From IMG/VR virus record IMGVR_UViG_3300043412_000080, positions 1 to 47,386 of that record: a stretch of 47,386 nucleotides of DNA. One strand, written 5' to 3'. Position 1 is the first letter of the stretch. Each line of letters opens with the position of its first letter. Both the position numbers and the translations under genes were made by a program. Below are positions 4,447 to 22,250 of the stretch, piece after piece. This DNA comes from a virus (taxonomy: Duplodnaviria > Caudoviricetes). The notes under the pieces were generated by a model. The model was not told the DNA's origin and ran no database searches. It saw nothing but the letters and a program-made list of their open reading frames with translations.

Positions 4447-4639
4447 TGGTGGGGGCAGTAAATTTTAGGTAGCATTTACAACCTTGTTACTCCGTCAGCG
4501 TGCCATTATGTAACTTAACCACGCTTCCCTCTAGGGAGTACCCCCATAAATTAGAAAGCAAGGAATCGGGGTAATTAATCCCTACCCTTGCTCTTAATGC
4601 AGTATCTTTGTCTAGAATCACGCAATACCGCCAACCACA
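4447..4639 (-). ncRNA. structured leader/ncRNA ending in a 99-nt tRNA-like domain (4545-4447) with 3' ACCA
   Basis: GGGGG...CCCCC-A-CCA closing stem; UACUCC/GGAGUA, AGCGUG/CACGCU and AGGU/ACCU helices; upstream GCGGUAU/AUACUGC and AGCAAGG/CCUUGCU hairpins; promoter TTGACA(4672-4667)-16bp-TATATT(4650-4645). Confidence 0.6.
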
Positions 4640-4668
4640 CCCGAAATATAACACGCATTACAGATATG

Positions 4669-5403
4669 TCAAGCGTTATTTACCTGTCTTGCGTAATAAA
4701 TTGCCCTGTGATGTTGGCAATATGTCTGTGACGGGTCAATCTGTGTAAGACAAAATGTGTCTTTATCGTCGTTTGTGTTGATGCCCCTGCAGGTTGTGGC
4801 GGTTAATTGCGTTATATCTAGGGCTGATAAATCAGATTCCAGCAGGTGACGCACTTTTTTTCTGTCTGCAGCCATCACCTGAAAAAACTCAATTTTTGAT
4901 TTTATCGGCTGGGCTTTAACTTTATTGACCACCCTAAAATCACGTGCGAATTGCCGAGGTTTTTCTATGTCCGTGATAATTGATGTTAAATCCTTGATTC
5001 GTTCTTTGGGTGTGTAGGTTCGCACTTTTTGATTGTTCAACCCATATAACCTAATTTTATGCTTAACAGTGGATAGCTTTAAACCTAATTTAACCCCTAT
5101 TACAGCAGCTGTAAGTCCTTTCTCTATGTACCAGTGCCGAATTGCCTCTTTGCCAGTGCGGGGGCATTCTGGGTTGTCTGTGGACTTGTTTATTTGAGAT
5201 ATCATGTATTGTGTTTTACAAGTTCCAAATTTTTCTTTAAATTTTGTGGATAATGCAAAAAAAGCGATTGCATAATTCAGGATGGCACGGGTGAACCCCA
5301 TGATTCTGCCTATTTCAGGATTTTTGTGCGTCCCGCTTAAATACAATTCGGTGATTTGTTTTTCTTGTTCGGGAGTAAATTTATGTTTTTTTGGGTTTGC
5401 CAC
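4669..5403 (-). CDS. gcrA: GcrA-like transcription activator with tandem HTH domains
   Basis: C-terminal ITQLTATTCRGI...TFCLTQIDPSQTYCQHHRAIYY matches the GcrA LxELxxxxCRWP...FCG...YCxxHxxxAY motif; GLTAAVIGVKLG...KIRLYGL resembles the GcrA HTH. Confidence 0.75.
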   Translation of the reverse strand: MANPKKHKFTPEQEKQITELYLSGTHKNPEIGRIMGFTRAILNYAIAFFALSTKFKEKFGTCKTQYMISQINKSTDNPECPRTGKEAIRHWYIEKGLTAAVIGVKLGLKLSTVKHKIRLYGLNNQKVRTYTPKERIKDLTSIITDIEKPRQFARDFRVVNKVKAQPIKSKIEFFQVMAADRKKVRHLLESDLSALDITQLTATTCRGINTNDDKDTFCLTQIDPSQTYCQHHRAIYYARQVNNA

Positions 5404-5425
5404 GATGTTTTCCTTTTCTGTTTTT

Positions 5426-5944
5426 TTATTTTATCTGATTCGGGGGTAAATCGTAAATATCTATTTTGATTAAATTTTTACAATCCCCACCGCCAAATTC
5501 AACGAGTAATTTTTTAATCTGCGAATCATCTGCGATTATGCCCGATTCTTGCAATGCGTCCATGATGCCTTTGTTTCGGTTGTCGATGTCTTGGCGTGCT
5601 TTGGTTTTTGGGTAAATGATGATGTGCAAAAAAACATCTTGAGTGATTGTGACCTGTGATTTTTGGCGTAAAAGCGTTTGGATTGCTTCGGATAGCCATT
5701 GACGGGCAATTTTGGATTTAATGATTCGCCCTCGATGCACGCTTCGATATGCCCCATTGACGGACGGGGGAACGGTGCAGGTATATGATGCGATGGGTTT
5801 ATTCATGATGCACCCCGTCCAATGCTTCCGCCGCCGCCTCAATGCGTGCGTTATATTCACGGCGGAATCTTTCTTTGGACATTCCTTAGAAAATAAGGCT
5901 TCGATTAGCGTTTTAAATGGGGCGTGTGGTGTTTCGTTTGTCAT
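5426..5944 (-). CDS. rusA: RusA-family Holliday junction resolvase
   Basis: PPSVNGAYR, QDIDNRNKGIMDALQESGIIADDSQI; the true start may be the internal MNKPI. Confidence 0.93.
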   Translation of the reverse strand: MTNETPHAPFKTLIEALFSKECPKKDSAVNITHALRRRRKHWTGCIMNKPIASYTCTVPPSVNGAYRSVHRGRIIKSKIARQWLSEAIQTLLRQKSQVTITQDVFLHIIIYPKTKARQDIDNRNKGIMDALQESGIIADDSQIKKLLVEFGGGDCKNLIKIDIYDLPPNQIK

Positions 5945-6843
5945 GCTGATTCCTTTTTTGAGTTACGCCAGTTTATTTTGCCGTCATCTTTGTATTTTTG
6001 CAACATTCCATTTTTTTCAATCAAATCATCAATCTGATTATTAAAATAATTCCACGAATGGATTCGCTTATCCGTTCCCTCGTTCTTTTCGCCATATTCT
6101 GCAATAACGCCGATAATGTCGTCAGGGTCTGCCCCATCATATAACCAATTTTTAAAAGTGATGTATGAAACAATATCAGGCTTCGCCACATTAACCAGTT
6201 TTAGGTTTTTGAGAAAAAGAAAACAGCGTCGGTGAGTAATTTCTGCAACCTGCCCTATGCTTGCATTATCAGACTCTGTGATTCTGCTATAAACCTCTCG
6301 TTGTATTGTTATGTCTGTGGGTGTGTTTAAATCTCCAAGTGATTTTATCAAACTTTGAAAATTCAAAAAATCATCACAAACAATATCCCCGTCACCCGAA
6401 GGGGGTAGGGGGTGTTCAATAGGTTTTCTCGGTTCTCTAGGTTTTATAGGTTTGTAGTCAGATTCTGACGTATGGATTGACGTGTCACTTGACGCGTCAA
6501 ATGATGTGTCACTTGACGCGTCAATATTTGACGCATCAGATTTTGACGCGTCAAAATCTGATGCGTCAATCTTTGGTAACGCTTTGTTTTCAGTCATAAA
6601 AATATAACTATTTATGTTTGATGTAAATTTTCTAATCCTTTCAATTTTTAAAATTTTTGCGTCACAAAGTTCTTTTAATCCGCCTTGAATCGCATTTTGC
6701 GATAAATCAAGGTTTTCAGACAATAATTGCAATGATGGACAACATAATCCAGTCTTTCGATTCCTGTATCTGCATATTGCAATCGCAATTATTTTAGCCT
6801 TTGCCGAAACTGACGAATCAAGTATGTCTTCTATAAAACTCAT
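5941..6843 (-). CDS. phage replication initiator (N-terminal winged HTH)
   Basis: TGLCCPSLQLLSENLDLSQNAIQGGLKEL...NSY HTH; internal DAS repeats encoded by iterons; next to dnaB. Confidence 0.85.
   Translation of the reverse strand: MSFIEDILDSSVSAKAKIIAIAICRYRNRKTGLCCPSLQLLSENLDLSQNAIQGGLKELCDAKILKIERIRKFTSNINSYIFMTENKALPKIDASDFDASKSDASNIDASSDTSFDASSDTSIHTSESDYKPIKPREPRKPIEHPLPPSGDGDIVCDDFLNFQSLIKSLGDLNTPTDITIQREVYSRITESDNASIGQVAEITHRRCFLFLKNLKLVNVAKPDIVSYITFKNWLYDGADPDDIIGVIAEYGEKNEGTDKRIHSWNYFNNQIDDLIEKNGMLQKYKDDGKINWRNSKKESA
6465..6570. repeat. probable replication origin: palindromic iterons TTGACGCGTCAA
   Basis: Copies at 6489, 6513 and 6543, variants at 6528 and 6558; 19-bp direct repeat at 6482 and 6506; perfect 42-bp palindrome at 6528-6569; inside the initiator gene as in lambda O. 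Confidence 0.8.
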
Positions 6844-7091
6844 TTCAACTCCATTTTTAAGGCGTAATTCTTAATATCTATATCAATTTCAGGTTTTATC
6901 ATTTGCCAAGAATCATTTATAAAATTTAAATACCTTTGGGATACCTTAGAAAAATCAGGCTCTTTATCATTTAAAACATACTCAGATATTGTACGCATAA
7001 AAATTAAAGCATCATCATCATTTGATATTGTGTTAAAAACATCAAAATAGAAACGCTTAAAAATAAAACTATTTTGCATTTTTAGCCTCAT
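6840..7091 (-). CDS. DUF6291-like replication-region protein
   Basis: NSFIFKRFYFD...FMRTISEYVLNDKEP...WQMIKPEID pattern. Confidence 0.6.
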   Translation of the reverse strand: MRLKMQNSFIFKRFYFDVFNTISNDDDALIFMRTISEYVLNDKEPDFSKVSQRYLNFINDSWQMIKPEIDIDIKNYALKMELK

Positions 7092-7221
7092 TTTTAGATT
7101 GGATATAATCTATTAAAACACGACGCATAAACTCCGACATATTTAACCGCTCATCATGTGCTGCATTACTCACCATCTCTTTAAATTCAAAAGATGCTTT
7201 TATTAAGATTTGTGTTTCCAA
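7069..7221 (-). CDS. ribbon-helix-helix regulator (50 aa, TTG start, not in ORF track)
   Basis: METQILIKASFEFKEMVSNAAHDERLNMSEFMRRVLIDYI; GGAGG RBS; upstream TTGAAA..TATACT promoter. Confidence 0.75.
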   Translation of the reverse strand: METQILIKASFEFKEMVSNAAHDERLNMSEFMRRVLIDYIQSKNEAKNAK

Positions 7222-7304
7222 TTATGCCTCCAAGGTTAATTATATATAGTATATACAATATTTATGTAATTTCAAATAAAAAAACCCCGATTAAGTGGCT
7301 TTCA

Positions 7305-8759
7305 TTAAATATTTGGATTGTCATTTTTTTTGTTTTTTTGTTTCTTTTTATTTTTGATATTTTCGCCGTAAGGTGTAACGCCTGAATCCCGTGTATAGTC
7401 TTTGATTGTGTTTTTACCCATATTGCAGGCACATTTTGCAATTCCAATCTCTCCCTGCCTGTTTTTGGCAACAATCAATTCCATGTAGTCAGAATAATAC
7501 TCACGTTCCGAATCAGGCTCATCACGTTCATATTGCGATGGACGAAATGGGAATATAATAATGTCAGCATCTTGCTCAATCGCTCCCGACTGTCTTAAAT
7601 GTGCCATATTAGGACGCTTTGCCTCAATGCTTTCATTCTTTTCTAAGTCACGATTAAGCTGTGATAATAAAATAACGGTTGCGTTTAAACGCTTTGCAAG
7701 GTTTTTAAGTTTTTGTGTGATTTCAGCAATCGAATCATTTTCACTTTTAAACGCCACCCGTTCCCGTGGGATTATCTGTAAATAATCAATCGCAATACAA
7801 TCAAGTCTTTTGCCAATCCGTAAAAGCTCTTTTGCTTTGCGTTCGGATATTGCACATATTTGATTTATATCAGGCTGTGAAAAATCATGCGTTATATTAT
7901 TATGATTTTTAGCACGCTCAACAAGTTCACGCACTGATTCGCCGTCCACTTGGTGGCGGGTCAAATCTGTATAATTTATCTCTTTTGTTTCAAGTGCTAT
8001 GAATCTTGATATGGTTTGTTGATTGGACATCTCAAGAGAAAAATTAATAACGTTATGCCCTTGTGATGCTATGCTATCAATAAACGCAAGTAATACAGCC
8101 GTTTTACCCATTGACGGACGACCACCAATGACAATCATTTCAGCTGGTCTAAAGCCACCAATTAAATCATCAAGTGAAGTTATAAGGCTTGGAATGTTTG
8201 TATTTTTATCACTTAGATAATCATCTAAAAATAAATCCATCGCATCGGTATGTGATAATTGATTTTGATTTATTATCGGTGATAAAAGTAAATTATCAAC
8301 CTTTGACTTCAAGCTATCCATAAACTTTAAAACATCGTTAAAGCATAATTTATCCATACCATTTAAGGCATTAGATAGTGCCTCTTTTATTTTTCTTTTT
8401 CTGTGCTGGTCATCTAAATCAAAAGCGTATGATTGAGCCGTTAAAAAGCCATTAGGCTGGTGACGCATTAAATTCATGACGTAATCATATTTATCATCAT
8501 CAAATTTATTCTTTAAATTCAAAACCGAAAATCTAAAATCGCCATCGAAAGATTCCAATAATAGGCTATAAAATTCTGCTAAAAACGAATCATCAAAATG
8601 TTCAGGTGTTATAAATGGGAATGGGTTTTGCTTGCCTTGGCACGCCTCGAATAATGCAAAGCCTAAAAATTCATTGCATAATTCAAAATTTAATTTGTCA
8701 TCATTGCTAATATTTGCATCATCAAGATTAGTTTTGTCTAAAAGCGATTGAATGTCCAT
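7305..8759 (-). CDS. dnaB: replicative DNA helicase DnaB
   Basis: GGRPSMGKT, FSLEMS, IDYLQ, LLSQLNR, LRQSGAIEQDAD, VAKNRQG. Confidence 0.97.
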   Translation of the reverse strand: MDIQSLLDKTNLDDANISNDDKLNFELCNEFLGFALFEACQGKQNPFPFITPEHFDDSFLAEFYSLLLESFDGDFRFSVLNLKNKFDDDKYDYVMNLMRHQPNGFLTAQSYAFDLDDQHRKRKIKEALSNALNGMDKLCFNDVLKFMDSLKSKVDNLLLSPIINQNQLSHTDAMDLFLDDYLSDKNTNIPSLITSLDDLIGGFRPAEMIVIGGRPSMGKTAVLLAFIDSIASQGHNVINFSLEMSNQQTISRFIALETKEINYTDLTRHQVDGESVRELVERAKNHNNITHDFSQPDINQICAISERKAKELLRIGKRLDCIAIDYLQIIPRERVAFKSENDSIAEITQKLKNLAKRLNATVILLSQLNRDLEKNESIEAKRPNMAHLRQSGAIEQDADIIIFPFRPSQYERDEPDSEREYYSDYMELIVAKNRQGEIGIAKCACNMGKNTIKDYTRDSGVTPYGENIKNKKKQKNKKNDNPNI

Positions 8760-8761
8760 AA

Positions 8762-8977
8762 TTATTTACCCCGTATGATTTTTTTATTGTCTTCAAATTC
8801 TTTTATTAAAAAATCAGACAATCTCTCTATGGTTTCGTAGCTATATGCACGCTCCACGCCACGGGTTAATTTATAAATGACATCAAATGATACGTTCGAC
8901 TCACGGGCGATATGCTTTAAATTCCGCCCCTTTTCAAGCAACCCTTTGATTGTGCTTATTGATAATATTTTTTTCAT
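8762..8977 (-). CDS. Cro-like HTH regulator
   Basis: NLKHIARESNVSFDVIYKL...SYETIERLSDFL; first gene of the replication operon. Confidence 0.8.
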   Translation of the reverse strand: MKKILSISTIKGLLEKGRNLKHIARESNVSFDVIYKLTRGVERAYSYETIERLSDFLIKEFEDNKKIIRGK

Positions 8978-9009
8978 TTTTTACCCTCTGAATTAATTTA
9001 ACAAATCAA

Positions 9010-9080
9010 ATGTATTCTATTTTTATATTTTTTGCAATAAAAAAATACTTGCACAGAATTTATTTTTATGCTATATATCA
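9010..9080. promoter_or_regulatory. divergent promoters for the replication and recombination operons
   Basis: Plus strand TTGCAC-17bp-TATATA with extended TG; minus strand TTGCAA-17bp-TACATT. Confidence 0.6.
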
Positions 9081-9112
9081 GTTGTTAAAACAAAGAAAAG
9101 GAATCAGTATGA

Positions 9113-9466
9113 ATGATATTATTGAACATGAATTTAATGACGTTGCGGAAATCGTTGATTATTGGTGCTGAACATCAGGCGGTGATTGCTGAAGAATTAT
9201 TTAAATCGATTGATTTTCAGGAATTTAAAGCAAGGGCGGAGCGTGTAAAACGTGAAGCTGATGCAAAGGCTTTAAAAGAAAAACAAGAAGCTGAACGCAT
9301 AGAGACTAAACGCTTGGCAAGGGAGGCAGATTTAAATCACCGCAAAACAATTAATAATCAAGTTATCAGTGATTTATTGGTACATGGTATCACAGAGGCA
9401 CAGGCAAAGGCGATTATTACCGCCATTGCAAAAGGCGAAATTTTAAACGTCAAAATTACATATTAA
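9113..9466 (+). CDS. lambdoid coiled-coil early protein (C-terminal portion)
   Basis: READLNHRKTINN...AQAKAIITAIAKGEILNVKITY C-terminus is common in lambdoid recombination regions; start uncertain. Confidence 0.65.
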   Translation: MILLNMNLMTLRKSLIIGAEHQAVIAEELFKSIDFQEFKARAERVKREADAKALKEKQEAERIETKRLAREADLNHRKTINNQVISDLLVHGITEAQAKAIITAIAKGEILNVKITY

Positions 9467-9476
9467 AGGAAACAAA

Positions 9477-10412
9477 ATGACGGAAACAAAAGTAATTTAT
9501 AATATGCCTGATGCTGATTATCGGGCAGTGGAGGCTTTGTCGTATAGTGCGATAAAAGAGATAAATATATCAATCACTGATTATTTAACGCCAAGAGAAG
9601 ACACCAAGGCGTTAAATATCGGACGTGCATATCATGTGGCGATATTGGAGGGCATGGATAAATTCGATGCTTTGTATTGTGGTAAATTTGTTGAACCTGA
9701 AAACTGTTTAAATACAGTTGATGACATGAAAGTTTATTGCGACGATAACGCATTGTCACGAAAAGGCTTTAAGTGCAAACAAGATTATATTGATGGGATT
9801 AAATCAAGTGGTTTAAATGCTATTCTTGCAGACAAAGCAAAAGAAGTGTTTTACGATGGGCGGACGGTTTTACCTGATGCGGTGATTGAAAAAATCAAGG
9901 CGTATGCTGAAATTATTGACAATACAAATCTTTTAAACGCCCCTAAAGAAGTGTCTGTTTTTTGGCATGAAGACGGAACTCCACTTAAGGCACGTTTCGA
10001 TGCGTTATTGCCAAACGGCGTTTTTGATTTAAAAACATACAGTAACGCCAAAAATGGAGTTATTGACAAGGTTGTCAATAGTTCTATTTTTTCTTATGAT
10101 TATGATGTGCAAGCGGTTGTTTATTTAAAAGCATACAAGGCTTGCCGTGATGCAGAAATAGCAAAATTTGAATGTGATAATCCTGCGTTCTTTTATCTTT
10201 TTGTGCAAACGGATAAAGGTTTAAATGTACGTGGACGGGCAGTTAATCCTGATTATGATGATTGCGAATTTTTCAAAGCAAACGCAATCGCAAAGATTGA
10301 AAACGCCAAGGAATTATACAAAAAATACATTATGGATAAAAAACAATTTGTTCATAAAATAGATTTTGTAGAGATTACAGATAATGACTTACCTATGTAC
10401 TTGAGAGGCTAA
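9477..10412 (+). CDS. RecE/exonuclease VIII-like PD-(D/E)XK nuclease (DUF3799-like)
   Basis: ALSYS, GRAYH, EVSVFW, LKARFD, DLKT, YDVQAVVY. Confidence 0.85.
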   Translation: MTETKVIYNMPDADYRAVEALSYSAIKEINISITDYLTPREDTKALNIGRAYHVAILEGMDKFDALYCGKFVEPENCLNTVDDMKVYCDDNALSRKGFKCKQDYIDGIKSSGLNAILADKAKEVFYDGRTVLPDAVIEKIKAYAEIIDNTNLLNAPKEVSVFWHEDGTPLKARFDALLPNGVFDLKTYSNAKNGVIDKVVNSSIFSYDYDVQAVVYLKAYKACRDAEIAKFECDNPAFFYLFVQTDKGLNVRGRAVNPDYDDCEFFKANAIAKIENAKELYKKYIMDKKQFVHKIDFVEITDNDLPMYLRG

Positions 10413-10413
10413 T

Positions 10414-11286
10414 ATGGATTTTGAAATTAAACATGCGGAATTTAAAATTATTCCTAATATTGCGTTTGTGGGAAAATCAAGCAGTGGTAAAACTTACTCC
10501 GCCTTACTTTTTGCCCGTGGATATGTTGGCAAGCAAGGAAAAATTATTGTGATTGACACAGAAAATGAACGATCACTATGTTATGCAGGAGATGGTGAAA
10601 TAGGGCATTTTGACGTATTGTCATTGCAAGCCCCATATACAAGTGAACGATATATACAAGCATATATACAGGCTTGTATGCACGTTGGCAAAGATGGGGC
10701 GGTGATTATCGACTCAATGTCACACGAATGGGAGGGAATAGGAGGAATCCTAGAAGAAGTCGAAAAATTTACTGGCAAAAATAAGGTTATGGCGTGGAAC
10801 TTGCCAAAACGTAGACATAATAAACTTGTCCATCAATTAGCTAATCCGCAAGCAATGACAATATTGACGTTTCGCATTAAGGATAAAATGATTGATGCTA
10901 CAGACACTAGCAAGGGATATGTAGAAGAAATTGTCACGGAAAAAAACTTTAAATTCGACCTAACAACAGTCATTAAATTTGAACCAAACACGCATAAGGC
11001 ATTTATTGAAAAGATGCCGAAACCTTTACACGGAGCTATAAAAAATGGTGACATTATCACATTGCGGACGGGTGAAATTTTTAACGCAGAATTATCAAAA
11101 GGCAAAATAATTGATTTTGATGATATTGATGTTGTGCAGGTAAAAATTGCAGGGTGTGAAACAGACGAGGATTTAAAAAATCTTTACCGTTTTTATCAAC
11201 ACCAAAATCACCCTAAAATTAATGAAATTGCGGATTTTTGCAAAAAGCAAAAAGCAGTTATGCAATATGAAACGCAGGAGGCTTAA
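10414..11286 (+). CDS. Sak4-like AAA ATPase / single-strand annealing protein
   Basis: [31 protein letters not shown]; between exonuclease and ssb. Confidence 0.85.
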
Positions 11287-11288
11287 AA

Positions 11289-11741
11289 ATGGCTAGTTTA
11301 AATAAAGTAATGTTAATCGGCAATCTTGGCAAAGACCCCGAGATACGCAAAACGCAATCGGGAAAACCGATTGCAAAATTTTCTATTGCCACGTCTGAAT
11401 CATGTAAAGATAAGCAGACAGGCGAGAAAAAAGAAAAAACCGAATGGCACAACATCGTAGTGTTTAACGAAGGCTTGGCTGGCGTCGTTGAGCGATACGT
11501 TAAAAAAGGGTCGAAAATTTACATTGAAGGGCAGTTACAAACCCGTAAATGGCAGGATAAAGACGGCAATGACCGCTACAGCACTGAAATTGTTTTGCAA
11601 TCATATAACGGGCAGTTAATCATGCTGGACGGACGCAACGCATCAGCAGATACACACAATGACACAGGGACGAATTATAACGCCCTCGTGAGTAAGAAAC
11701 AGGATTATGCACAAGAAATTGATGATGATGTGCCATTTTAG
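11289..11741 (+). CDS. ssb: single-stranded DNA-binding protein
   Basis: [36 protein letters not shown] tail; alphaproteobacterial-like. Confidence 0.97.
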
Positions 11742-11749
11742 GGGAAATT

Positions 11750-11959: not shown

Positions 11960-12006
11960 GCAGACAGCGTACAGAAAAACAAGAAATTAATAAAAGGATT
12001 AACAAA

Positions 12007-12444: not shown

Positions 12445-12448
12445 AAAT

Positions 12449-12472
12449 TAAGGGGCGTAAAGCTCCTTTTTT
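12449..12472 (+). terminator. intrinsic terminator between convergent genes
   Basis: AAGGGGC-GTAAA-GCTCCTT followed by a T run. Confidence 0.7.
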
Positions 12473-14067: not shown

Positions 14068-14432
14068 ATTATGAATACACAACAACCAACACCCACCACG
14101 CAAGATAAAAATGAACCAGAACATTTTGATTTCGGTGTTGCAATACGCCATTTAAAAGATAAAAAGGAAGTTGCACGAACTGGTTGGAATGGTAAGCGTA
14201 TGTTTTTATTTATCATACAAGGCAGTAACGACATTGCTAAATTAAATGGATATGGCTTTGGTGAGTATGAAAACGAACCCACATTTCAAGACGCTATTTT
14301 CATGCGTACAGCAGATAATAAATTAGTCCCTTGGCTTGCGTCACAAACCGATGTCTTGGCAGATGATTGGGTCATTTATAGTGCAACGCATTGATTTGTA
14401 AATATTTTTTAAAAAAAGGATTGAATTATGAA
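14054..14432 (+). repeat. 22-bp direct repeat AAAAAAAGGATTGAATTATGAA flanking tad2
   Basis: Copies at 14054-14075 and 14411-14432, each containing an RBS and ATG. Confidence 0.9.
14071..14394 (+). CDS. tad2: DUF2829 / Tad2-family anti-Thoeris nucleotide sponge
   Basis: FGVAIRHLKDKKEVARTGWNGKRMFLF ... VPWLASQTDVLADDW signature. Confidence 0.88.
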   Translation: MNTQQPTPTTQDKNEPEHFDFGVAIRHLKDKKEVARTGWNGKRMFLFIIQGSNDIAKLNGYGFGEYENEPTFQDAIFMRTADNKLVPWLASQTDVLADDWVIYSATH

Positions 14433-14801: not shown

Positions 14802-15415
14802 TTGACGCTGATGTATTAAGAGCTTGGGCAATAAAACAATTAGAAATATCAACAAAAGCTATGGATAACTGCAATACAAATTTTAAATTAAGGGGTAAGC
14901 ATAGCGGTTCTATAGTTGTTTTAGAATCAATTATTGATAAAATCAATGAACTATCCACGCATACCCCCATGGCAAAAAATGCAACTATTGCCTATATAGT
15001 AGGCGATAGATGTATCATCAACATTATCGGCGACACCTTAGTGACATATGCAGGTTTTGCAGATGGCAAGCATAAATTTATTGCAAGCAAAACAACAACA
15101 TATACCACAGTTGATTTAATCGACGTCGAGAATATTGATATGACATATCGCTCTTTATCTGCTGCTGTGGTGCAAGAGGGTGACGGGTGGTGTTATGATT
15201 TAACGCCGTTAGAAGAAGATGAAGTATATCATGTTCTAATAGAAAGCCCTAGAGAAAAACTGGGCAGTAAAGCAACCAGTGGCAAAAAATACTATTACCA
15301 AGATATTGATACTTTATATGTTATAAAATCAAACTTAGAAGAAAATGAAAATCACGGTGATAGGATTATTGCATGGCAACCACTGCCACCAATTCCAACG
15401 AGGGGTGATTTATGA
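14786..15415 (+). CDS. hypothetical protein with DUF551-like C-terminus
   Basis: IIAWQPLPPIP end motif; AAGGA RBS. Confidence 0.7.
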   Translation: MAATIIDADVLRAWAIKQLEISTKAMDNCNTNFKLRGKHSGSIVVLESIIDKINELSTHTPMAKNATIAYIVGDRCIINIIGDTLVTYAGFADGKHKFIASKTTTYTTVDLIDVENIDMTYRSLSAAVVQEGDGWCYDLTPLEEDEVYHVLIESPREKLGSKATSGKKYYYQDIDTLYVIKSNLEENENHGDRIIAWQPLPPIPTRGDL

Positions 15416-15571
15416 CTTTAAGCTATAAGCGTGAATTATTACGTTTTTAAAACTACGAAGATGTATTTTTTAATTTTTCAAATGAACGGGCTACATATTT
15501 TTTGGAACAAGAAAACAAATATCATTGGCGGACACAACAAGTGCCTCAAGATATTCAATGACGGAGGAGTT

Positions 15572-15793
15572 ATGAAGCTGTTAATCATTTTCTTTTTGTT
15601 ATGCTGCACAGCTTTTGCAAGTGACGAATGGTTTTATCCCAAGGTTTATAAAGGCATAATTTTTGCCTGTATAAGCCAAAAGACCAGTAACGATACAATG
15701 GATAGAATGAACCTTGATTTATCCGACCCTGGAATCCAGTTTATTAACTGCCCCATACAAGAAAAGGAAACAGACGAATATGACAACCGATAA
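15572..15793 (+). CDS. small secreted protein
   Basis: GGAGGAG RBS; MKLLIIFFLLCCTAFA signal peptide. Confidence 0.65.
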   Translation: MKLLIIFFLLCCTAFASDEWFYPKVYKGIIFACISQKTSNDTMDRMNLDLSDPGIQFINCPIQEKETDEYDNR

Positions 15794-16103
15794 GATCCCA
15801 TTTATTAACAGCAATAAACAATATGAATTAGCAGATGCTGAACAATTGGAGTCATTGCCAAGGATTCCTGATTTATTACATTCATTCCAGTTTCTAAATG
15901 AAGCACATGAAATCCAACGCAAGCACGGATTGAGGCTAGAGGAAACCGTGAATAATGAATTAGTGCCTATGCAAGGCGAAAACGCAAGACTCAATGAATA
16001 TATTGATGACCTTACGTGGGAATTAAAAGTGGCAAAGCACTATGCGGTTATTGTGTCAATATTATCGCTTGGAATAATCGCATTTTATACGCTTAGGGGG
16101 TAA
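15780..16103 (+). CDS. coiled-coil protein with C-terminal TM helix
   Basis: AAGGA RBS before MTTDK; YAVIVSILSLGIIAFY. Confidence 0.65.
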   Translation: MTTDKIPFINSNKQYELADAEQLESLPRIPDLLHSFQFLNEAHEIQRKHGLRLEETVNNELVPMQGENARLNEYIDDLTWELKVAKHYAVIVSILSLGIIAFYTLRG

Positions 16104-16106
16104 ACT

Positions 16107-16583
16107 ATGCAAGCCATAGGCAAGATGATTGCGATTTTATTCATTGCCACGCAGGCTTACAGTGCGGAACGTATAATGCCCCCGCTGGGTTACTTGAACG
16201 GTGTTATTAATAAGAATATAACACCGTCCAGTGAAAACTGCAACCCTTTAACGCATAACCAGTTAATGACTTATACCGAGTCGGTTTGGTGGGCTTTGGA
16301 TTTTAAAGCTGATGATACTGAAAACTGGACTGAAACGCCAAGCGGAATGGGTGATTGCGAGGATTATGCTTTAAAACTTAGAAAGATATTAATTGATGCG
16401 AATATATCGAATCAGTATTTTTCTTTGGCGGTGGTTGATGGTGATGTTGAGGGAATAAACCACGCCGTCTTGATTGTCACCACGAGCGACAGAGGGCGGT
16501 TTATGTTTGACAACAAAGGATTACACAGTATGAATAAGTATAAATTATTGAAAATTGAGCAAAATGGGTGGTGGTATAAATGA
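16107..16583 (+). CDS. transglutaminase-like cysteine peptidase (BTLCP/C93, LapG-like), exported
   Basis: GDCEDYALK, NHAVLIVTT and FMFDN give the Cys-His-Asp triad; N-terminal signal peptide ending AYSA. Confidence 0.88.
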   Translation: MQAIGKMIAILFIATQAYSAERIMPPLGYLNGVINKNITPSSENCNPLTHNQLMTYTESVWWALDFKADDTENWTETPSGMGDCEDYALKLRKILIDANISNQYFSLAVVDGDVEGINHAVLIVTTSDRGRFMFDNKGLHSMNKYKLLKIEQNGWWYK

Positions 16584-16810
16584 AGTTTTATTGTTTTCAC
16601 ACAGACGAAATAAAATTAGACAGTAAATTTATTGCTTTTTATATCAATGGAAGCGGTGGTGATTTATTTTCAATGGATAAAGACGGTGCAATAAGATGTG
16701 CAGATGGTGATTATGTATCTACAGACTGGCTTTTAGATGCAAGTTTTTGTCTTTTTGCATATCTACCTAAGAAATTCTTATTACATTACGAAATTAAGGA
16801 GCTAAAATGA
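16580..16810 (+). CDS. hypothetical protein
   Basis: Coupled ORF, 76 aa. Confidence 0.6.
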   Translation: MKFYCFHTDEIKLDSKFIAFYINGSGGDLFSMDKDGAIRCADGDYVSTDWLLDASFCLFAYLPKKFLLHYEIKELK

Positions 16811-16959
16811 ATCTAGACCGTACATTCTGTGCTTCACCGAATTGTAAAAACGATTGCGGACGCAAAATAACAGAAGCAGAAAAAGAGTTTTTGCGTAAAG
16901 AACGAGAGGCAGGTATTAACCGACCTACTTCAAACGGTTATTTCTGTGGGGAATCATGA
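16807..16959 (+). CDS. small Cys-rich protein (50 aa, not in ORF track)
   Basis: MNLDRTFCASPNCKNDCGRK...YFCGES; AAGGAG RBS; ATGA-coupled on both sides. Confidence 0.7.
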   Translation: MNLDRTFCASPNCKNDCGRKITEAEKEFLRKEREAGINRPTSNGYFCGES

Positions 16960-17327
16960 TAATATACGAAAGAACAATCCGCAAGAATGGGGAGGATATA
17001 GGTAATGTGTGCCTTATTAAATATCCAAATTTAAGCGTACCATTTTTGCAATATGCTGTTATGCCACCATATCAGAATCAGGGTATAGCGAGCCGTGAAG
17101 TTGCATCATTCTTGAAAGATTGTCACAAAAATGGACACAATAGAATATCCGCTATGGTACAGCACTGCAACGTTGCAAGCATGAAAATTATTGAGAAAAA
17201 CAATTTTGTAAAGATTAAAAACTTTGAGAATGTTTTTACATATTTAATTGATTTGCGAATCAGTAAAGAAAAACTACAGGCGGTGATGGATAATTTTAAA
17301 ACAACCAGCCAGCATTTCAGAGTTTAA
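16956..17327 (+). CDS. GNAT (RimJ/RimL-like) acetyltransferase
   Basis: YAVMPPYQNQGIAS acetyl-CoA motif; NVASMKIIEKNNF. Confidence 0.85.
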   Translation: MIIYERTIRKNGEDIGNVCLIKYPNLSVPFLQYAVMPPYQNQGIASREVASFLKDCHKNGHNRISAMVQHCNVASMKIIEKNNFVKIKNFENVFTYLIDLRISKEKLQAVMDNFKTTSQHFRV

Positions 17328-17383
17328 AGGTGTTGGATTCTACACCTTTAGAATTAACAATTAATATTAAAGGGTGAATTATT

Positions 17384-17602
17384 ATGGGAAAGTTTTTTTT
17401 AGGAATATGTATTACTTCTGCTTTATTTCTTGCTTTTTTTGGTTGGCATTTTGAGACGCAAAGATTTAATCTGTGTGGAAAATTATATCCGATTAAAAAA
17501 GATTTTGATTATTGCTATGCTGAATCTAAATCTATAGATTTGGAATTTAAATTTACTGACAAGTTTGTAAAAAATATCAATAAGAAGATTAATAAACACT
17601 AG
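17384..17602 (+). CDS. small membrane-anchored protein
   Basis: N-terminal TM helix; AAGGGTG RBS. Confidence 0.6.
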   Translation: MGKFFLGICITSALFLAFFGWHFETQRFNLCGKLYPIKKDFDYCYAESKSIDLEFKFTDKFVKNINKKINKH

Positions 17603-17626
17603 TGTTTATTGCAATACATACCAGAT

Positions 17627-17663
17627 AAAAAGCTACTACAAGTTAATGTGGTGGCTTTTTTTT
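17627..17663 (+). terminator. intrinsic terminator
   Basis: AGCTACTACA-AGTTAA-TGTGGTGGCT followed by a T run; G-U pairs favour the plus strand. Confidence 0.8.
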
Positions 17664-17673
17664 ATATTTTTTA

Positions 17674-17794
17674 TCAAACCGAGGGGAATCGAACCCCTAT
17701 GTCATGCTATGTGTTAGCCTAACACAATAATCGCAAAGATGAAACCCTCAAGGAGCGACATATCCATTAGCACATTACTCATCATACGGTTTGA
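17674..17794 (-). ncRNA. tRNA-like ncRNA (~120 nt) with its own promoter
   Basis: Acceptor CAAACCG/CGGTTTG-A; canonical T-arm AGGGG-TTCGATT-CCCCT; non-canonical interior; promoter TTGCAT(17830-17825)-16bp-TATAAT(17808-17803) with extended TG. Confidence 0.7.
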
Positions 17795-17905
17795 GTAAAA
17801 TCATTATAACACAATTTTATTAAAATGCAATCCATCATTAACTTTTTGGTAACATCTTTTTGTTATTATCATTTCATAGGGGAATTAACCCCATGGAGTT
17901 TGAAA

Positions 17906-18016
17906 ATGAAAAAACTACATAAAATAACATGGTCAATATGCCAGCACTTAATGTGCGGAGCGTTTTTAATGGGCGTTGCGTTTTGCGTAACACAGACAAT
18001 CGGAGGTATAGCATGA
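17906..18016 (+). CDS. small membrane peptide
   Basis: GGAG RBS; MKKLHKITW...hydrophobic segment. Confidence 0.5.
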   Translation: MKKLHKITWSICQHLMCGAFLMGVAFCVTQTIGGIA

Positions 18017-18171
18017 AATATATTTTAATCATTATGGTTATTTTGTCCGTTACCGCCTGTGCAAGACGTGAACATGAACAAATCCAGTATCGCCAAGCCG
18101 TCGGACGCGAACACATTTACAAAATAATCAAAACAGACGAATTGCGGAGGGATTATTATGAAGCTAGTTAA
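18013..18171 (+). CDS. small lipoprotein
   Basis: GGAGGT RBS; MKYILIIMVILSVTA-C lipobox. Confidence 0.7.
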   Translation: MKYILIIMVILSVTACARREHEQIQYRQAVGREHIYKIIKTDELRRDYYEAS

Positions 18172-18931
18172 AAAAGGGGTCATTGCCGCAGCCGTTCTTG
18201 CATCTGCCTTTGCTGCGTATCAATACGGGCGAATCAGTCAAACACCCATCATTAAGGAGGTCACTGTAAAAGAAAACGTGTATATCCAAGACACGCAGGG
18301 GAAAATTGATGCAGAGAATAAATTAAATTCTGTATTGGAATTTTTAACTGGAGGGCAAAAGATTTTTGCTAAAATGGTTATGGATATGAACATATACACA
18401 AAAAACCCGTTGCAATCATACGAGGACGCTTATTGGTTGGCGGTGGCAATGTATAGGGAATGTGGGATATGTAATGACTCCGAAGCGGTATTCTTGGCAT
18501 ATTCACTTCGTGGATTTTTGCATAACAAGTTAGAACCAAGTATGAAAGCCCTTGTACATCGCAGGGAGGCAAGCGGTGCATACTTCTTATCGTTTGCCAG
18601 CAATAAATCTTTAATGTCCCTACCGAATGTAAAAGATGATGCCATATTCAGACGTTACATTGGTTATGCTTTGTCCGTTTTATACAATGTGCATAACGAA
18701 TCAATTAATACCCAAAATGTGCAAAACATTTACCATCAAATTACAGGAGGCAAAGAAACGGGGATATATTGGTGTAATACCGAATCATCAAAATGTGATT
18801 GGCACAAAGGATATGCAAGGCGTAACGGTACAATCCCGTTTCGTTTAAATTATTCACAGGAATTATCACCAGTGATTAGCGAGAATATCGAATCACTTCA
18901 TAAATTTTATGCAAAGGAACGCAAGATATGA
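18158..18931 (+). CDS. SleB/Hydrolase_2-like cell wall hydrolase, membrane-anchored, divergent
   Basis: WLAVAMYRECG resembles the CLAxAIYFEARG catalytic Glu motif; YFLSF and LHKFY resemble QFSW and HxFY; N-terminal TM. Confidence 0.6.
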   Translation: MKLVKKGVIAAAVLASAFAAYQYGRISQTPIIKEVTVKENVYIQDTQGKIDAENKLNSVLEFLTGGQKIFAKMVMDMNIYTKNPLQSYEDAYWLAVAMYRECGICNDSEAVFLAYSLRGFLHNKLEPSMKALVHRREASGAYFLSFASNKSLMSLPNVKDDAIFRRYIGYALSVLYNVHNESINTQNVQNIYHQITGGKETGIYWCNTESSKCDWHKGYARRNGTIPFRLNYSQELSPVISENIESLHKFYAKERKI

Positions 18932-19111
18932 ATTTTATCAAAGACACAATCACATTATCAGTTTTATCCGCAATCTGTGGGTACGTTGCATCATATCCAT
19001 TTATTCAGGATATGGCGTTTAAATTAGTACAGGGGGTTATATGAGTAATATCCTAAACGCAATCATAGGGCTTGCGATTGTTGCCCTGTACATCATCATT
19101 AAGGGGCATAT

Positions 19112-19339
19112 ATGACAATAACAAAAGAAAAATTAAAATTAATGTTAGATTTATACACAGAGAAGGAATGCCAAAAAATAGATGGTAAAACATATATATC
19201 ATTAAACGGTGCTACAGTTGATGATTTTTTGAGTCATATCTATAGCATATTATGGCAATTACAAGATGCAAAAGATATGCGATACGTTAAATCTTTTGCG
19301 TATGATACGAGTAAAAATAAAATACAGGTGGATATATGA
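19112..19339 (+). CDS. hypothetical protein
   Basis: AGGGG RBS. Confidence 0.6.
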   Translation: MTITKEKLKLMLDLYTEKECQKIDGKTYISLNGATVDDFLSHIYSILWQLQDAKDMRYVKSFAYDTSKNKIQVDI

Positions 19340-19462
19340 CGGAATTATTTAAGCGACTAACCGAGATATTCGCAATCGTGAACGCTGAATATCGTTCGTT
19401 GGATAAGACTGATAAAGAGGCTTTGAAACGTGGTTTACCAAACAACAACAAAGGAGAATAAC

Positions 19463-19714
19463 ATGATTAAATTTTTAAAAAGACTTTTTGTAAAAGAAAA
19501 AAATAGTTCTAATGAAGAAGGTCAAGAAATTGAAAAAGATTTTGATATACTTTATGCTCTTTTTGATGATGATTATTTTAATGAACGAATTAAGGCAAAA
19601 AACGCATTCATAGAGGCGATAGAAAATCCCAATGAAAATCCTAATAATGTTTCAGCAGAAACCAAACAAAAATTTGCTGAATTAATGAAAGGTGATAAAA
19701 ATGCCCGTGATTAA
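19463..19714 (+). CDS. hypothetical protein
   Basis: AAGGAG RBS before MIKF. Confidence 0.6.
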   Translation: MIKFLKRLFVKEKNSSNEEGQEIEKDFDILYALFDDDYFNERIKAKNAFIEAIENPNENPNNVSAETKQKFAELMKGDKNARD

Positions 19715-20008
19715 CACAATCTTAACTACCATGTGGCATAATAAAATGAATAGATGGTTGCGAGGCAATGCACGCAATCAGAATACACCGAAGGACGATT
19801 TATGGATTATCGTAGATGATTCGGAATGGTCAAAATTAAACAACAACTTATCGAAGGATACGACAAAATGGACAGATTAAATCAAGCAATATACGACGCA
19901 CGCAATGCCTGTGAAGTCATGGAGCGTTACGAGAAAAAACGAATCATAGAGGAACGTAAACTATCCGAAGCGGATTACTTGCGCATAAAAAACGCCCCAC
20001 AGAATTAA
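19692..20008 (+). CDS. two small overlapping hypothetical genes (19692-19880 and 19826/19868-20008)
   Basis: Consecutive coupled ORFs with RBSs. Confidence 0.5.
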
Positions 20009-20120
20009 CCGTGGGACTATTTTTGAGCCTGACGAACTCATGTTTTAGTCAAATATTAAAACATACTAAAATCATAATATTGCACTAAAAATGTGTGACG
20101 ACACCACGCCGTCACATCTT
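19987..20120 (-). ncRNA. candidate sRNA (~135 nt)
   Basis: Promoter TTGCAT(20154-20149)-17bp-TATAAT(20131-20126); hairpins UGUGACGGC/GUCGUCACA and AUGUUUUA/UAAAACAU; terminator GUCCCACGG-UUAAUU-CUGUGGGGC-GUUUUUU that pairs fully only on the minus strand. Confidence 0.7.
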
Positions 20121-20333
20121 TTATTATTATATGGTGATTCGTTAGGAAATGCAACATACACAATTAATTTTATATACAAGGTTAATTATGTATGTTATAA
20201 AATAAACAGTGGTTCGCATAAGGCGAATCAGAAAAAATAAAAAAGGGATAAATATGAACATTGAACAAAAAATTTCCGACATTAATATTATTATCTGCAA
20301 GAACGCCATTTTTAAACTGGATTAGAGGCTAGA

Positions 20334-20609
20334 ATGAAAAATCTATACACAGATGCACAGAAACAAATACGCCTTGCATTAATGATACGAATGCAGGGTG
20401 AATTACAGGTAATTAAACGCCGTCAAATCGGCAAATTTTTACCGCCAGCCCAAAAGATTGATTGGGATTATCTGTCTGAATTTCTAGATAATACGCCCAT
20501 CAATACCATTAAATCTTGGTTGCGGACAAATACGAATACCAAACAAATACAGGGCGTTCCGCTGTCAAAAGTGAAATGGATTGAAAATAAATTAAAGGAG
20601 GTTTTATGA
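20334..20609 (+). CDS. possible HTH DNA-binding protein
   Basis: DYLSEFLDNTPINTIKSWLR; GAGG RBS. Confidence 0.55.
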   Translation: MKNLYTDAQKQIRLALMIRMQGELQVIKRRQIGKFLPPAQKIDWDYLSEFLDNTPINTIKSWLRTNTNTKQIQGVPLSKVKWIENKLKEVL

Positions 20610-20986
20610 CGTATAAAATGCAATTAGATTGTATTTCACAGGGCTTTGAAACTGCTACATCAAAGGCAATAAAGTCTATCGAACGAGAAAAAAAAGAATT
20701 TTCACAATATTTAAAAATTGTGGAATTTATTTTTAGGGAAATATTGGTGCCTGAAAAATTACATGAAAATGTAAAAATCACGAATAACGGCGTTTTTAGA
20801 ATTGAAATCACTTTAGACGATGCGTTTAAAATAAATAAGATTCTTTTACATATTCAGGGTGATATAGTTACTATGATAAATGATGATTTTTATGATAAAA
20901 AATTTTCAATTTCACATGGGCTGTATCCGTTAAAAGTGAACATATTAGAACACATCAATCATTTTAAAGTGGTGGGTGTGGAGTGA
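20606..20986 (+). CDS. hypothetical protein
   Basis: GGAGG RBS, coupled. Confidence 0.65.
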   Translation: MTYKMQLDCISQGFETATSKAIKSIEREKKEFSQYLKIVEFIFREILVPEKLHENVKITNNGVFRIEITLDDAFKINKILLHIQGDIVTMINDDFYDKKFSISHGLYPLKVNILEHINHFKVVGVE

Positions 20987-21126
20987 CAAAGTCCGAGCAA
21001 AAACCGCCTAAAACGCCCGAAGAAAAAATAACCCGCTTAGAGAAAGAGGTTTACATTTTGCAAACGCACGTCAAACATATCTTTGATGTGCTTAAATTAA
21101 ACAACATAAAATGGTAAGGATAAATT

Positions 21127-21474
21127 ATGACAGATAGAATAATCAAGGTTGATGCGTTGTTGAGAGCTTTGGCGGATAGAAAACCAAGGGCTATACACAA
21201 TCCGCCTGTTGCTATTGGCTATGGACAGGCAATGTGTGATTTAGAAGAGATTATATCAGAGATTGCAACAACTGCCCCCGAAACACAGGAAAGCGTAAGT
21301 ATTGATAAAATAATGGAGGTTTATAACCATATCAAAAGTAAGCAACAAGAAGCAGCATTACTTCCTAGTAATAAATTTGATAAAAAAGTTGTTGAACAAG
21401 TATATTCCACACTTGATGTAGTGATTAAGGCAATTACAAAAACACCAACGAAAGGAACAAATCATGGAATTTGA
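21127..21474 (+). CDS. hypothetical protein
   Basis: AAGGA RBS; RIIKVDALL N-terminus. Confidence 0.7.
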   Translation: MTDRIIKVDALLRALADRKPRAIHNPPVAIGYGQAMCDLEEIISEIATTAPETQESVSIDKIMEVYNHIKSKQQEAALLPSNKFDKKVVEQVYSTLDVVIKAITKTPTKGTNHGI

Positions 21475-21913
21475 CAAAGAAAAATGGGGTGCCTATGTCC
21501 AAGAGCAGGGCGGTCATAAAAACCTAGCATCAACCGCTATGGAAAATAGAGTCATTCAATATTGCTATCTTTATGATGATGCACTGGAGGCATTTGAAGA
21601 TGATTTTAACCCTATTATTCATAGTGGCGACACGGCTTTATTTATGGCTTTAAAGCTAGATATAGAAGAGTTTATTCTGCCCGAACCAGTGCAAACAGTC
21701 ACAGGCATTGAGGCTTTACAGGCTTTGTGTGATGGTAAAGTGTTGAGGCTCAACTCAAATTCAGACCAGCGTGTTGATTATGAAATTCATGGGAGACATA
21801 TTATGCGACGCTACGTAGGAAATAAAGATTTTGAATATTGTTACCAACCAAGAGAGGATTCTGGTGCAGATTTCTTTTTAAATCATATTTTCGAGGTGAT
21901 ACCATGCCAATAA
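21464..21913 (+). CDS. hypothetical protein
   Basis: AAGGA RBS; internal TGIEALQALCDGKVLR motif. Confidence 0.7.
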   Translation: MEFDKEKWGAYVQEQGGHKNLASTAMENRVIQYCYLYDDALEAFEDDFNPIIHSGDTALFMALKLDIEEFILPEPVQTVTGIEALQALCDGKVLRLNSNSDQRVDYEIHGRHIMRRYVGNKDFEYCYQPREDSGADFFLNHIFEVIPCQ

Positions 21914-22083
21914 TTATATTGATTTTAATCGGAGTTGCGATTTACGCAATCGTGACGATTGGTTTTCAGTCGTGGCTTGGGATATGCCTTGCCGCACTGT
22001 GTGTAATGCTTTTAATCGCTTTAAACGAAAGCAAACCAAAGCAGAAAAAAGATGATGACGATAACGATTTTATGGGTATGTGA
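21904..22083 (+). CDS. small two-TM membrane protein
   Basis: GAGGTG RBS; two hydrophobic helices and an acidic tail. Confidence 0.65.
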   Translation: MPIIILILIGVAIYAIVTIGFQSWLGICLAALCVMLLIALNESKPKQKKDDDDNDFMGM

Positions 22084-22094
22084 TGATTAAATAA

Positions 22095-22134
22095 CAAAAA
22101 AGCCCGTACATTTTACCGTACGGGCTTAATTTTT
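22095..22134. terminator. terminator between the convergent early and late operons
   Basis: AAGCCCGTAC-8nt-GTACGGGCTT; the U tract is best on the minus strand. Confidence 0.88.
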
Positions 22135-22213
22135 GTTACAAGAAAAGGAACTAACTTATGACAGACAGAATGAAAAAAAATAAATAAGAATTACAAATCA
22201 AGACAATTTGTAA
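22095..22213 (-). ncRNA. candidate trans-acting anti-RBS sRNA (~120 nt)
   Basis: Promoter TTGCAA(22246-22241)-17bp-TACAAT(22223-22218); 5' hairpin; AUUCUGUCUGUCAUAAGUUAGUUCCUUUUCU is complementary to the start of gene 21127; strong terminator. Confidence 0.65.
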
Positions 22214-22250
22214 GATAATTGTAACTTATATTTAAGGACATTGCAAGCGT

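Follow-up and report, generated by a model that had tools for sequence, protein, structure and literature searches.

Four candidate leftward small RNAs in the gene-free gaps of a GcrA-encoding phage: one switch or separate elements?

Introduction

The IMG/VR virus record IMGVR_UViG_3300043412_000080 (Caudoviricetes) comprises 47,386 nucleotides (nt) of DNA, analysed here over its whole length and referred to as the window, in which four gene-free gaps each carry a promoter-like site facing leftward into a stretch that may be transcribed as a small RNA (sRNA). We call these minus-strand elements E1 to E4 (Table 1). A sequence-only reading of the window had proposed that the four, together with a GcrA homologue and several tiny helix-turn-helix (HTH) and ribbon-helix-helix (RHH) regulators, form a single RNA-based switch standing in for a CI/Q circuit. 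The question raised by this locus is whether the gaps hold the parts of one regulatory system or elements of separate kinds. At a probability of about one half, we favour the view that they give four unrelated leftward sRNAs in a probably lytic phage, and not one switch, and that E4, which lies behind the late operon, is the clearest regulator among them.

Several independent sRNAs in a phage of 40-50 kb are normal among lambdoid phages, for which OOP, aQ, P22 Sar, lambda PreS/LPR1 and VP882 VpdS are described in the available portions of the sources (PMC12197685; bioRxiv 10.1101/2024.10.31.621285). Those phages are temperate and keep CI, whereas the phage described here shows no lysogeny genes, and unlike the lambdoid sRNAs none of E1 to E4 is antisense in cis to the start of a known regulator. 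Here, we describe the promoters, folds, relatives and predicted partners of the four elements, whose transcription, processing and every regulatory effect we infer from the DNA. They are probably uncatalogued RNAs of known kinds. The observation behind the earlier proposal is partly confirmed, and its interpretation partly supported.

Results

The four elements have no sequence or operator in common

All 6 pairwise comparisons among E1 to E4 fall within the range of shuffled sequences (no pair reaches P<0.05; the best, E3 with E4, stands at 50/1000), and no common promoter motif or operator was seen, the longest match between the promoter regions being 9 nt. The gaps, hexamers and spacers are as the earlier reading described them. 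Near-consensus σ70 promoters, as it called all four, are found for E1 only, with 11 matches out of 12 hexamer positions (the score used here), the other three sites matching at 9/12. In E2 and E3 the -35 hexamer matches at 3/6 positions (TTG only) and the -10 hexamer is a perfect TATAAT. Sites of the form TTG...TAnnnT scoring at least 9/12 number 52 genome-wide, 12 of them within the 3,089 non-coding bases that make up 6.5% of the genome; six such sites have a perfect TATAAT, two of which belong to E2 and E3. A promoter-prediction tool counts 61 sites between 12 and 24 kb against 54.3 +/- 7.8 in shuffled sequence, that is, no excess, and neither E2 nor E3 appears in its output, in which 60 of the 61 sites are listed.

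A GANTC site is indeed present in one promoter, that of E3. Genome-wide there are 141 GANTC sites where 156 are expected, and arithmetic from the genome count puts the chance of at least one among four 45-nt promoter windows at about 44%. The site and the link to GcrA are chance. The words strongly avoided across the genome are GATC (7), GGCC (1) and CCGG (1); GANTC is not among them.

The four stretches had also been described as structured. Their folding z-scores are -2.3 (E1), -2.2 (E2), -6.1 (E3) and -5.5 (E4), read against a background of 788 tiled 120-nt windows with 12 shuffles each. A value of z<-2.2 is found in 79 of these windows and z<-5 in 11, so that energy alone singles out only E3 and E4, E1 and E2 being ordinary in this respect. 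Of the three elements said to oppose the long rightward early region, E2 and E3 do lie inside the rightward arm (9.1-22.1 kb), which holds recombination and small genes. E4 comes only after the last terminator of this arm and runs in line with the late operon. E1, for its part, is a sense leader.

Known families and relatives gave little. ARAGORN at default settings finds 0 tRNA genes in the whole genome, and a search of Rfam, proposed earlier as a check, returned nothing near a gathering score. Comparison by blastn with 50,697 phages yielded only fragments covering at most 20% of each query; viral contigs reached by single GcrA-like and terminase proteins held no homologue of any element, and none was confirmed in two metagenome and two genome scans. 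In the literature covered, mostly without subscription papers, there is no report of E1 to E4 or of an sRNA switch in a GcrA phage. The supplements of PMC10690425 stood outside this comparison; the part of that source available refers to 10,006 candidate viral RNAs in them, and one of the four elements could be among these.

E4 mirrors the typical start region of the phage

The late operon reads leftward and ends at 22251. E4 is colinear with it, because its promoter-like site starts just past the last late stop codon. Between a 5' hairpin and a terminator, the open middle of E4 contains a seed that is the reverse complement of a gene start region; on the plus strand this start pattern stands at 22158, and AAGGA-N4-9-ATG occurs 5 times in 52.7 kb of non-coding strand. 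Duplexes were predicted between the seed and 82 start regions, 33 of them belonging to rightward early genes. The five best predicted partners are all rightward early open reading frames (ORFs): 15780 (-28.6), 21127 (-28.0), 13439, 9109 and 16807. The duplex with ORF 21127 would have 16 contiguous pairs across the AUG, and the third-best duplex stands at -24.7 kcal/mol; when the 82 real start regions were reverse-complemented and tried in place of the seed, 1 reached this energy, as did 0 of 100 shuffles. The cost of opening the seed is 1.6 kcal/mol. In an unselected scan it ranks first among 482 non-coding 38-nt windows, at 32% GC, which bears out the earlier remark that one element carries a segment complementary to ribosome-binding sites (RBSs). 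Whole-element duplex scans of E1, E2 and E3 against the same 82 start regions gave no outlier.

The layout of E4 resembles that of AbcR1/2 and NfeR1, anti-Shine-Dalgarno (aSD) sRNAs of Alphaproteobacteria in which, according to the sections available, a single-stranded aSD seed between hairpins blocks many RBSs (PMC8844928). Like these sRNAs, E4 has an open, accessible seed between hairpins that is predicted to pair with several RBS regions, and a terminator with a U-tract. It differs from them in that the seed also covers the spacer, the AUG and the next codons, in being encoded by a phage with its own early genes as predicted partners, and in having no Rfam match. E4 would be made either as the tail of the late-operon transcript or from its own weak promoter. 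Its open middle, which mirrors the typical start region of this phage, would cover the RBS and AUG in several early mRNAs, and the predicted outcome is that late in infection the early genes are no longer translated. On these duplex predictions, E4 is likely the clearest regulatory candidate of the four. To our knowledge, few phage-made sRNAs act in trans on genes of their own phage, and one seed with five named start regions offers a cheap and sharp test of such regulation.

The partner proteins belong to no known family, and an ESM Atlas search for the two best targets gave only unnamed clusters below 0.9. No homologue of E4 was found in 8 endolysin-linked loci of unrelated phages or in INPHARED. 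A likeness of E4 to tRNA-Gln was rejected: 0 of 1000 shuffles reach its score of 87, yet other windows of the genome score 84-85. At the DNA level the 5' hairpin (22190-22212) is an inverted repeat of 9 bp that coincides with the predicted start and could serve as an operator. Second to E4 for start-region pairing is a GC-rich non-coding stretch at 47161-47214 on the minus strand, in a 362-nt gap that folds at -70.3 on the minus strand versus -44.4.

E3 is a terminator-ended candidate sRNA

E3 shows a clear strand bias. The predicted fold of its minus strand has an energy of -45.6 kcal/mol and includes 7 G.U pairs, against -25.5 with 1 G.U pair for the plus strand, and its terminator, at -16.0 versus -7.6 on the plus strand, has its U-tract on the minus strand and acts leftward only. 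A leftward terminator inside the rightward arm points to a leftward transcript. The 3' end of E3 overlaps the last 22 nt of the rightward ORF 19826-20008. An opposite-strand promoter, a terminator and an overlap with an mRNA 3' end are what characterises cis-antisense RNAs of the OOP kind, and all three are present in the E3 sequence. E3 is likely a stand-alone sRNA that would pair in cis with the 3' end of the overlapped rightward transcript. Among the start regions it has no standout partner (rank 26 of 482 non-coding windows).

E1 is the structured front of a transcript that carries a tRNA in a relative

Conservation of structure in relatives, put forward earlier as a check, could be examined for E1. 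An alignment of seven GcrA-like proteins led to one contig in IMG/VR, L167, which is the one relative found; it is 91-94% identical to the window across DnaB, Rep-RusA and the Arc-like gene, and its terminase differs. The promoter across the GcrA stop codon and, at the other end, the Arc-like gene are both retained in L167; of the RNA itself it has helix A, hairpin B and domain C, which again ends in CCACCA. After helix A it inserts about 56 nt that close a larger domain not present in the window, and between B and C it carries a canonical tRNA-Gln(UUG), called by ARAGORN and scoring 62.1 bits (E 3e-13) with the Rfam tRNA model. When L167 was aligned onto the E1 fold, which had been predicted from the window before L167 was seen, 42 of 54 aligned pairs were unchanged, 5 were consistent, 3 compensatory and 4 broken, a further 5 being set aside for gaps. 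Three or more compensatory pairs arose in 0.34% of 20,000 permutations (P=0.003), and the plus-strand fold has 1 compensatory and 5 broken pairs. In domain C the inner arms have 1 compensatory and 1 consistent change, the loops are invariant and the closing stem is partly broken; the 92% identity of this domain is no extra conservation, since the neighbouring genes are 91-94% identical. The E1 helices thus covary in L167; no homologue was found for E2 to E4.

E1 was one of two elements said to be tRNA-like. Its cloverleaf fails while its local helices stand, because 2 of the 4 breaks and 1 gap fall in the would-be acceptor stem and there is no T-loop; domain C yields no tRNA with ARAGORN at -ps80, no T-arm and no Rfam family. 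Since in L167 the tRNA-Gln lies inside the same transcript, E1 is a sense leader of the tRNA-region type. By position, it is the structured front of a transcript that reads sense into the Arc-like gene; what lies downstream is a pair of small genes and not the late operon. A comparable setting is that of RNAC and RNAD of T4, small non-tRNA RNAs from the phage tRNA region whose role is given as unknown in the available text (PMC3014915; PMC9697503). One transcript shared with a tRNA gene, the mark of such stable RNAs, is found in L167 and not in the window itself. E1 differs in being a unit of 200-330 nt with at most one tRNA that reads on into an Arc-like gene, and the likeness is one of position, with no sequence relation claimed. 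E1 is likely a tRNA-region precursor from which host tRNA-processing nucleases would release stable RNAs of the RNAC/RNAD kind, its tRNA having probably been lost, or never gained, by the window phage. Set beside L167, it shows a tRNA-region transcript in minimal form, once containing the tRNA and once lacking it, which isolates the non-tRNA domains.

E1 also resembles the P4 CI and P1 C4 RNAs in being a structured RNA within a leader; in the part of the source available these are RNase P substrates without a T-loop (PMC5499578). Unlike them it has no loop-complementary sites: a search for back-pairing with Watson-Crick 7- to 9-mers from three minimum-free-energy loops, over its own-strand neighbourhood, found only one self-complementary A/T 7-mer. 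No antirepressor or kil gene was recognised downstream, and there is no Rfam match. A pattern search for domain C returned 53 loci, of which only L212, identical with L167, is genuine, and a terminase alignment reached 43 loci at 31-38%, none with a domain C match. The mosaic edges between the two phages are sharp on both sides: L167 8277-9255, compared with window 192-2850, has another terminase module and another recombination gene.

E2 carries the acceptor/T half of a tRNA

The second element said to be tRNA-like, E2, does carry the acceptor/T half of a tRNA. Its closing stem is stacked against a T-arm of 5 bp whose loop reads UUCGAUU; a 10-bp hairpin precedes this arm, about 60 nt in the middle are weakly folded, and there is neither an encoded CCA nor a terminator of its own. 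E2 is the sole ARAGORN match at the 95% threshold (-ps95), although this match borrows its 5' half from the promoter region. Of 10 T-loop-like hairpins in the whole genome, two have 5/5 pairs, one being E2, the only one in a gap, and the other lying inside the terminase gene. E2 would be handled like a tRNA precursor. It is likely matured like a tRNA. Once matured it may imitate a tRNA without coding function, perhaps to draw off host factors that target tRNAs, which is the weakest step of this proposal.

The remaining features of E2 set it apart from known tRNA-like RNAs. A full tRNA is rejected: E2 has no D-arm or anticodon arm in register, is about 120 nt long (versus 72-95), is missed by ARAGORN at default and has no RF00005 match. 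As a transfer-messenger RNA (tmRNA) it fails in that pair 3 is A-U and not G3.U70 and no GGGGC piece lies downstream; its best Rfam tmRNA score, with cyano_tmRNA, is 11.5 bits versus 70, on the T-arm only. Irregular tRNAs do occur in phages, and allo-tRNAs are given as 8/4 or 9/3 in the available part of the source (PMC5389517); E2 is 8/5 or 7/5 and lacks their 12-bp acceptor branch, and it has no D-loop GG in register and no 7-nt anticodon loop on a 5-bp stem. Suppressor-anticodon readings of the loops were rejected because the loops have the wrong size or lack U33/R37. Y RNAs of the YrlA type have the permuted order T-arm, loop-closed acceptor, D-arm, with a Ro60/Rsr gene nearby. In E2 the T-arm stands last, before the closing strand, and no Ro60/Rsr was found among 80 scanned proteins. 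A descent of E2 and L167 domain A from a common ancestor by duplication was also rejected: although just 1 of 1000 shuffles reaches the score of the pair, real genome windows score equally or higher, and the E2 covariance model misses domain A.

A plus-specific terminator (-17.0 versus -9.5 kcal/mol on the minus strand) ends the rightward transcript just before the E2 3' end. Because this terminator precedes E2, and E2 overlaps no gene, contact with the early transcript would require that transcription run past the terminator; the E2 gap showed no promoter-like site on the plus strand. Its T-arm pattern, with 45 of 64 parts scanned, gave 122 matches at 119 loci, of which 40 are ordinary tRNAs (ARAGORN) and 82, judged by eye, are tmRNA ends, att-type remnants and others; none is E2-like. 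The acceptor pattern gave 6 loci, 0 of them homologous. A match of the E2 model in one further locus, L079 (E 0.003), was not counted, as the locus had been chosen for the same T-arm.

The phage is probably lytic

The absence of CI and integrase stressed by the earlier reading holds. Integrase (PF00589), S24 (PF00717), resolvase (PF00239) and ParA (PF13614) all gave 0 matches, with controls positive in 9-14 of 14 genomes; no protelomerase is among the 80 ORFs scanned with Pfam and PHROG, no family-directed search having been made. Since none of these domains is present, there is no evident lysogenic state that a switch could maintain. In L167, too, the divergent gap holds no ORF of at least 40 aa, so that there is no room for a CI gene. 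From its gene content, the phage is probably lytic. Its small HTH/RHH genes and GcrA-like gene, also named earlier, were confirmed by the Pfam and PHROG scans; the leftward arm has the order HTH-DnaB-Rep-RusA-GcrA, and the structural set consists of a lambda-type terminase, portal and capsid plus a contractile tail. GcrA and a BTLCP peptidase point to an alphaproteobacterial host, judging from what is known of these families. An exact 12-nt direct repeat occurs at both ends (1-12 = 47375-47386), 190 nt before the small terminase gene. By analogy with lambda cos, it likely represents filled-in cohesive ends, and the genome is, judged from this repeat, probably complete.

Table 1. Positions of the elements, their parts and neighbouring features in the window
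Feature	Position	Strand	Remarks
E1	4447..4640	-	
E1 promoter-like site TTGACA-16-TATATT, TG extension	4645..4672	-	11/12; spans GcrA-like stop codon; in L167 same -35, -10 TATATA
E1 helix A	4599..4631	-	2 compensatory and 2 one-sided consistent changes, 1 deleted partner
E1 hairpin B	4553..4595	-	2 one-sided consistent changes, 1 loop change, 0 broken
E1 B/C junction	4549..4550	-	site of canonical tRNA-Gln(UUG) and short spacer in L167
E1 domain C	4447..4545	-	multi-arm RNA with CCACCA end; 92% identical in L167; lacks a T-loop; Arc-like start codon follows after 18 nt
GcrA-like gene	4669..5403	-	upstream of E1; PF07750 E 4.3e-06, 27.6 bits (cut-off 26.9); 6 relatives at 62-70%
Arc-like RHH gene	4285..4428	-	directly 3' of E1; phrog_582 E 9e-07; 95% identical in L167
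E2	17674..17796	-	~120 nt; 8-bp closing stem (7-bp core 17793-17787 with 17681-17675), T-arm 17698-17682
E2 promoter-like site TTGCAT-16-TATAAT, TG extension	17803..17830	-	9/12
23-codon hydrophobic ORF in E2	17714..17785	-	no clear RBS; probably incidental
Plus-specific terminator	17627..17660	+	ends rightward transcript just before E2 3' end
E3	19987..20120	-	four-hairpin RNA; z -6.1; minus-specific intrinsic terminator 20017-19987
E3 promoter-like site TTGCAT-17-TATAAT	20126..20154	-	9/12; GANTC at 20136 in spacer
E4	22095..22212	-	5' hairpin, open U-rich middle, intrinsic terminator 22127-22095 common with converging early arm
E4 promoter-like site TTGCAA-17-TACAAT	22218..22246	-	9/12; starts 5 nt past stop of last late gene
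E4 seed	22135..22172	-	reverse complement of AAGGA-N7-ATGACA start region
9-codon ORF, good RBS	22158..22187	+	downstream of early-arm terminator

Discussion

Several points weigh against reading the gaps as four sRNAs of a lytic phage. No search found a homologue of E2, E3 or E4, and for E1 the evidence is one relative whose neighbouring genes are 91-94% identical; there, the permutation P is 0.055 when consistent pairs are pooled with compensatory ones, and 0.24 for broken pairs. Ten per cent of tiled windows fold as well as E1 and E2. Among the 82 real start regions, once reverse-complemented, 7 equal or beat the best E4 duplex (0 of 100 shuffles do), the letters of the seed can be explained equally by the 9-codon ORF on the plus strand, and two unrelated phages with the three-gene lysis cassette have no E4 behind it. 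IMG/VR, moreover, classes the record as linear and 73% complete, so that lysogeny genes may be missing. The gaps might thus hold ordinary punctuation, a tentative possibility that deserves some weight, with E4 a 3' untranslated region and bidirectional terminator containing a leftover gene start, E1 a leader after tRNA loss, E2 a decayed tRNA and only E3 free-standing. E4 does directly follow the last late gene, its terminator is symmetric (-24.5 versus -22.2), an RBS and ORF stand on the plus strand at 22158, E1 is without the tRNA and the roughly 56 nt of domain A relative to L167, and 9/12 promoters are common genome-wide. That ORF, however, has only 9 codons and comes after the early terminator with no promoter-like site ahead; the E4 seed ranks 1/482 and the E1 helices covary; and E2 retains a perfect 8-bp stem, T-arm and TG-TATAAT, yet has a 120-nt body without a recognisable D-arm or anticodon arm.

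A single switch made up of all four RNAs together with GcrA and the small HTH/RHH proteins, replacing CI/Q and keeping a non-integrating prophage quiet, is very improbable. All four elements face left, TTGCAT...TATAAT is common to E2 and E3, the best E4 partners are early genes, and there is no CI-type or integrase gene; the GcrA-like gene follows RusA, which is the position of Q in lambdoid phages. Against this, there is no common sequence or operator and no ParA or resolvase for a plasmid prophage, E1 leads in sense to two small genes and not to late genes, none of the 82 start regions is a specific partner of E2 or E3, and GANTC is neither depleted nor enriched. Two narrower proposals are scarcely better placed. 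E1 could be an immunity leader like P4 CI or P1 C4, its excised domain C pairing back on its own transcript and controlling the Arc-like gene, which would fit the order of promoter, structured RNA with a CCA end and small repressor gene, the absence of a T-loop, as in the CI and C4 RNAs so far as the available text describes them (PMC5499578), and the invariant loops of domain C. It is improbable, given that the three loops have no 7- to 9-nt complement except the A/T 7-mer, that no C4 match was found in Rfam and that L167 has a tRNA gene in the same transcript. It is equally improbable that E2 or E3 belongs to a peptide-coding or type I toxin-antitoxin-like unit, E3 being the antitoxin of the overlapped ORF. 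The hydrophobic 23-codon frame in E2 and the convergent 3' overlap of E3 speak for such a unit, but the frame has no clear RBS and such frames are common in U-rich strands, and the ORF under E3 encodes a charged 60-aa sequence with no family match, not a membrane peptide.

A wider but rather unlikely proposal is that a lytic GcrA phage times its cycle by RNA: an sRNA from the tail of the late operon, mirroring the consensus start region of the phage almost perfectly, would silence many early, perhaps also host, genes together, and two or three uncatalogued RNAs processed like tRNAs, the E1 domains and E2, would serve as non-coding tRNA mimics against host tRNA-targeting defences. No new lysis-lysogeny circuit is shown by this analysis.

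Additional observations

In the Rep gene, 15-nt TTGACGCGTCAA-type repeats and a 25-nt palindrome at 6457-6572 are likely origin iterons. The first gene of the rightward arm, at 9109-9466, looks truncated or frameshifted: its RBS leads into a 20-codon frame, and another frame matches the last third of phrog_1376 only. A gene with a Tad2-like anti-Thoeris domain lies at 14071-14394 and a GNAT acetyltransferase gene at 16956-17327, 350 nt from E2. The three-gene lysis cassette (22251-23298) recurs at 56-77% amino acid identity in L226 and L227, phages with unrelated structural genes, which suggests a common host.

Some tRNA-like RNAs were seen in other loci. In L241, at about 1945-2070 within an array of 11 tRNAs, a T-arm, an acceptor-like stem with a small loop and a D-arm follow one another as in a circularly permuted tRNA-like RNA (YrlA-type order), which ARAGORN missed. 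At 27 of the 119 T-arm loci (L052, L057, L058, L062, L069, L070 and 21 more) a short piece, often in a tRNA array, ends in a T-arm and CTCCA, and in the six named loci a GGRGCYG motif lies 12-167 nt downstream of it. These pieces likely belong to permuted, two-piece tmRNA genes carried by phages, in which the intervening segment varies greatly in length.

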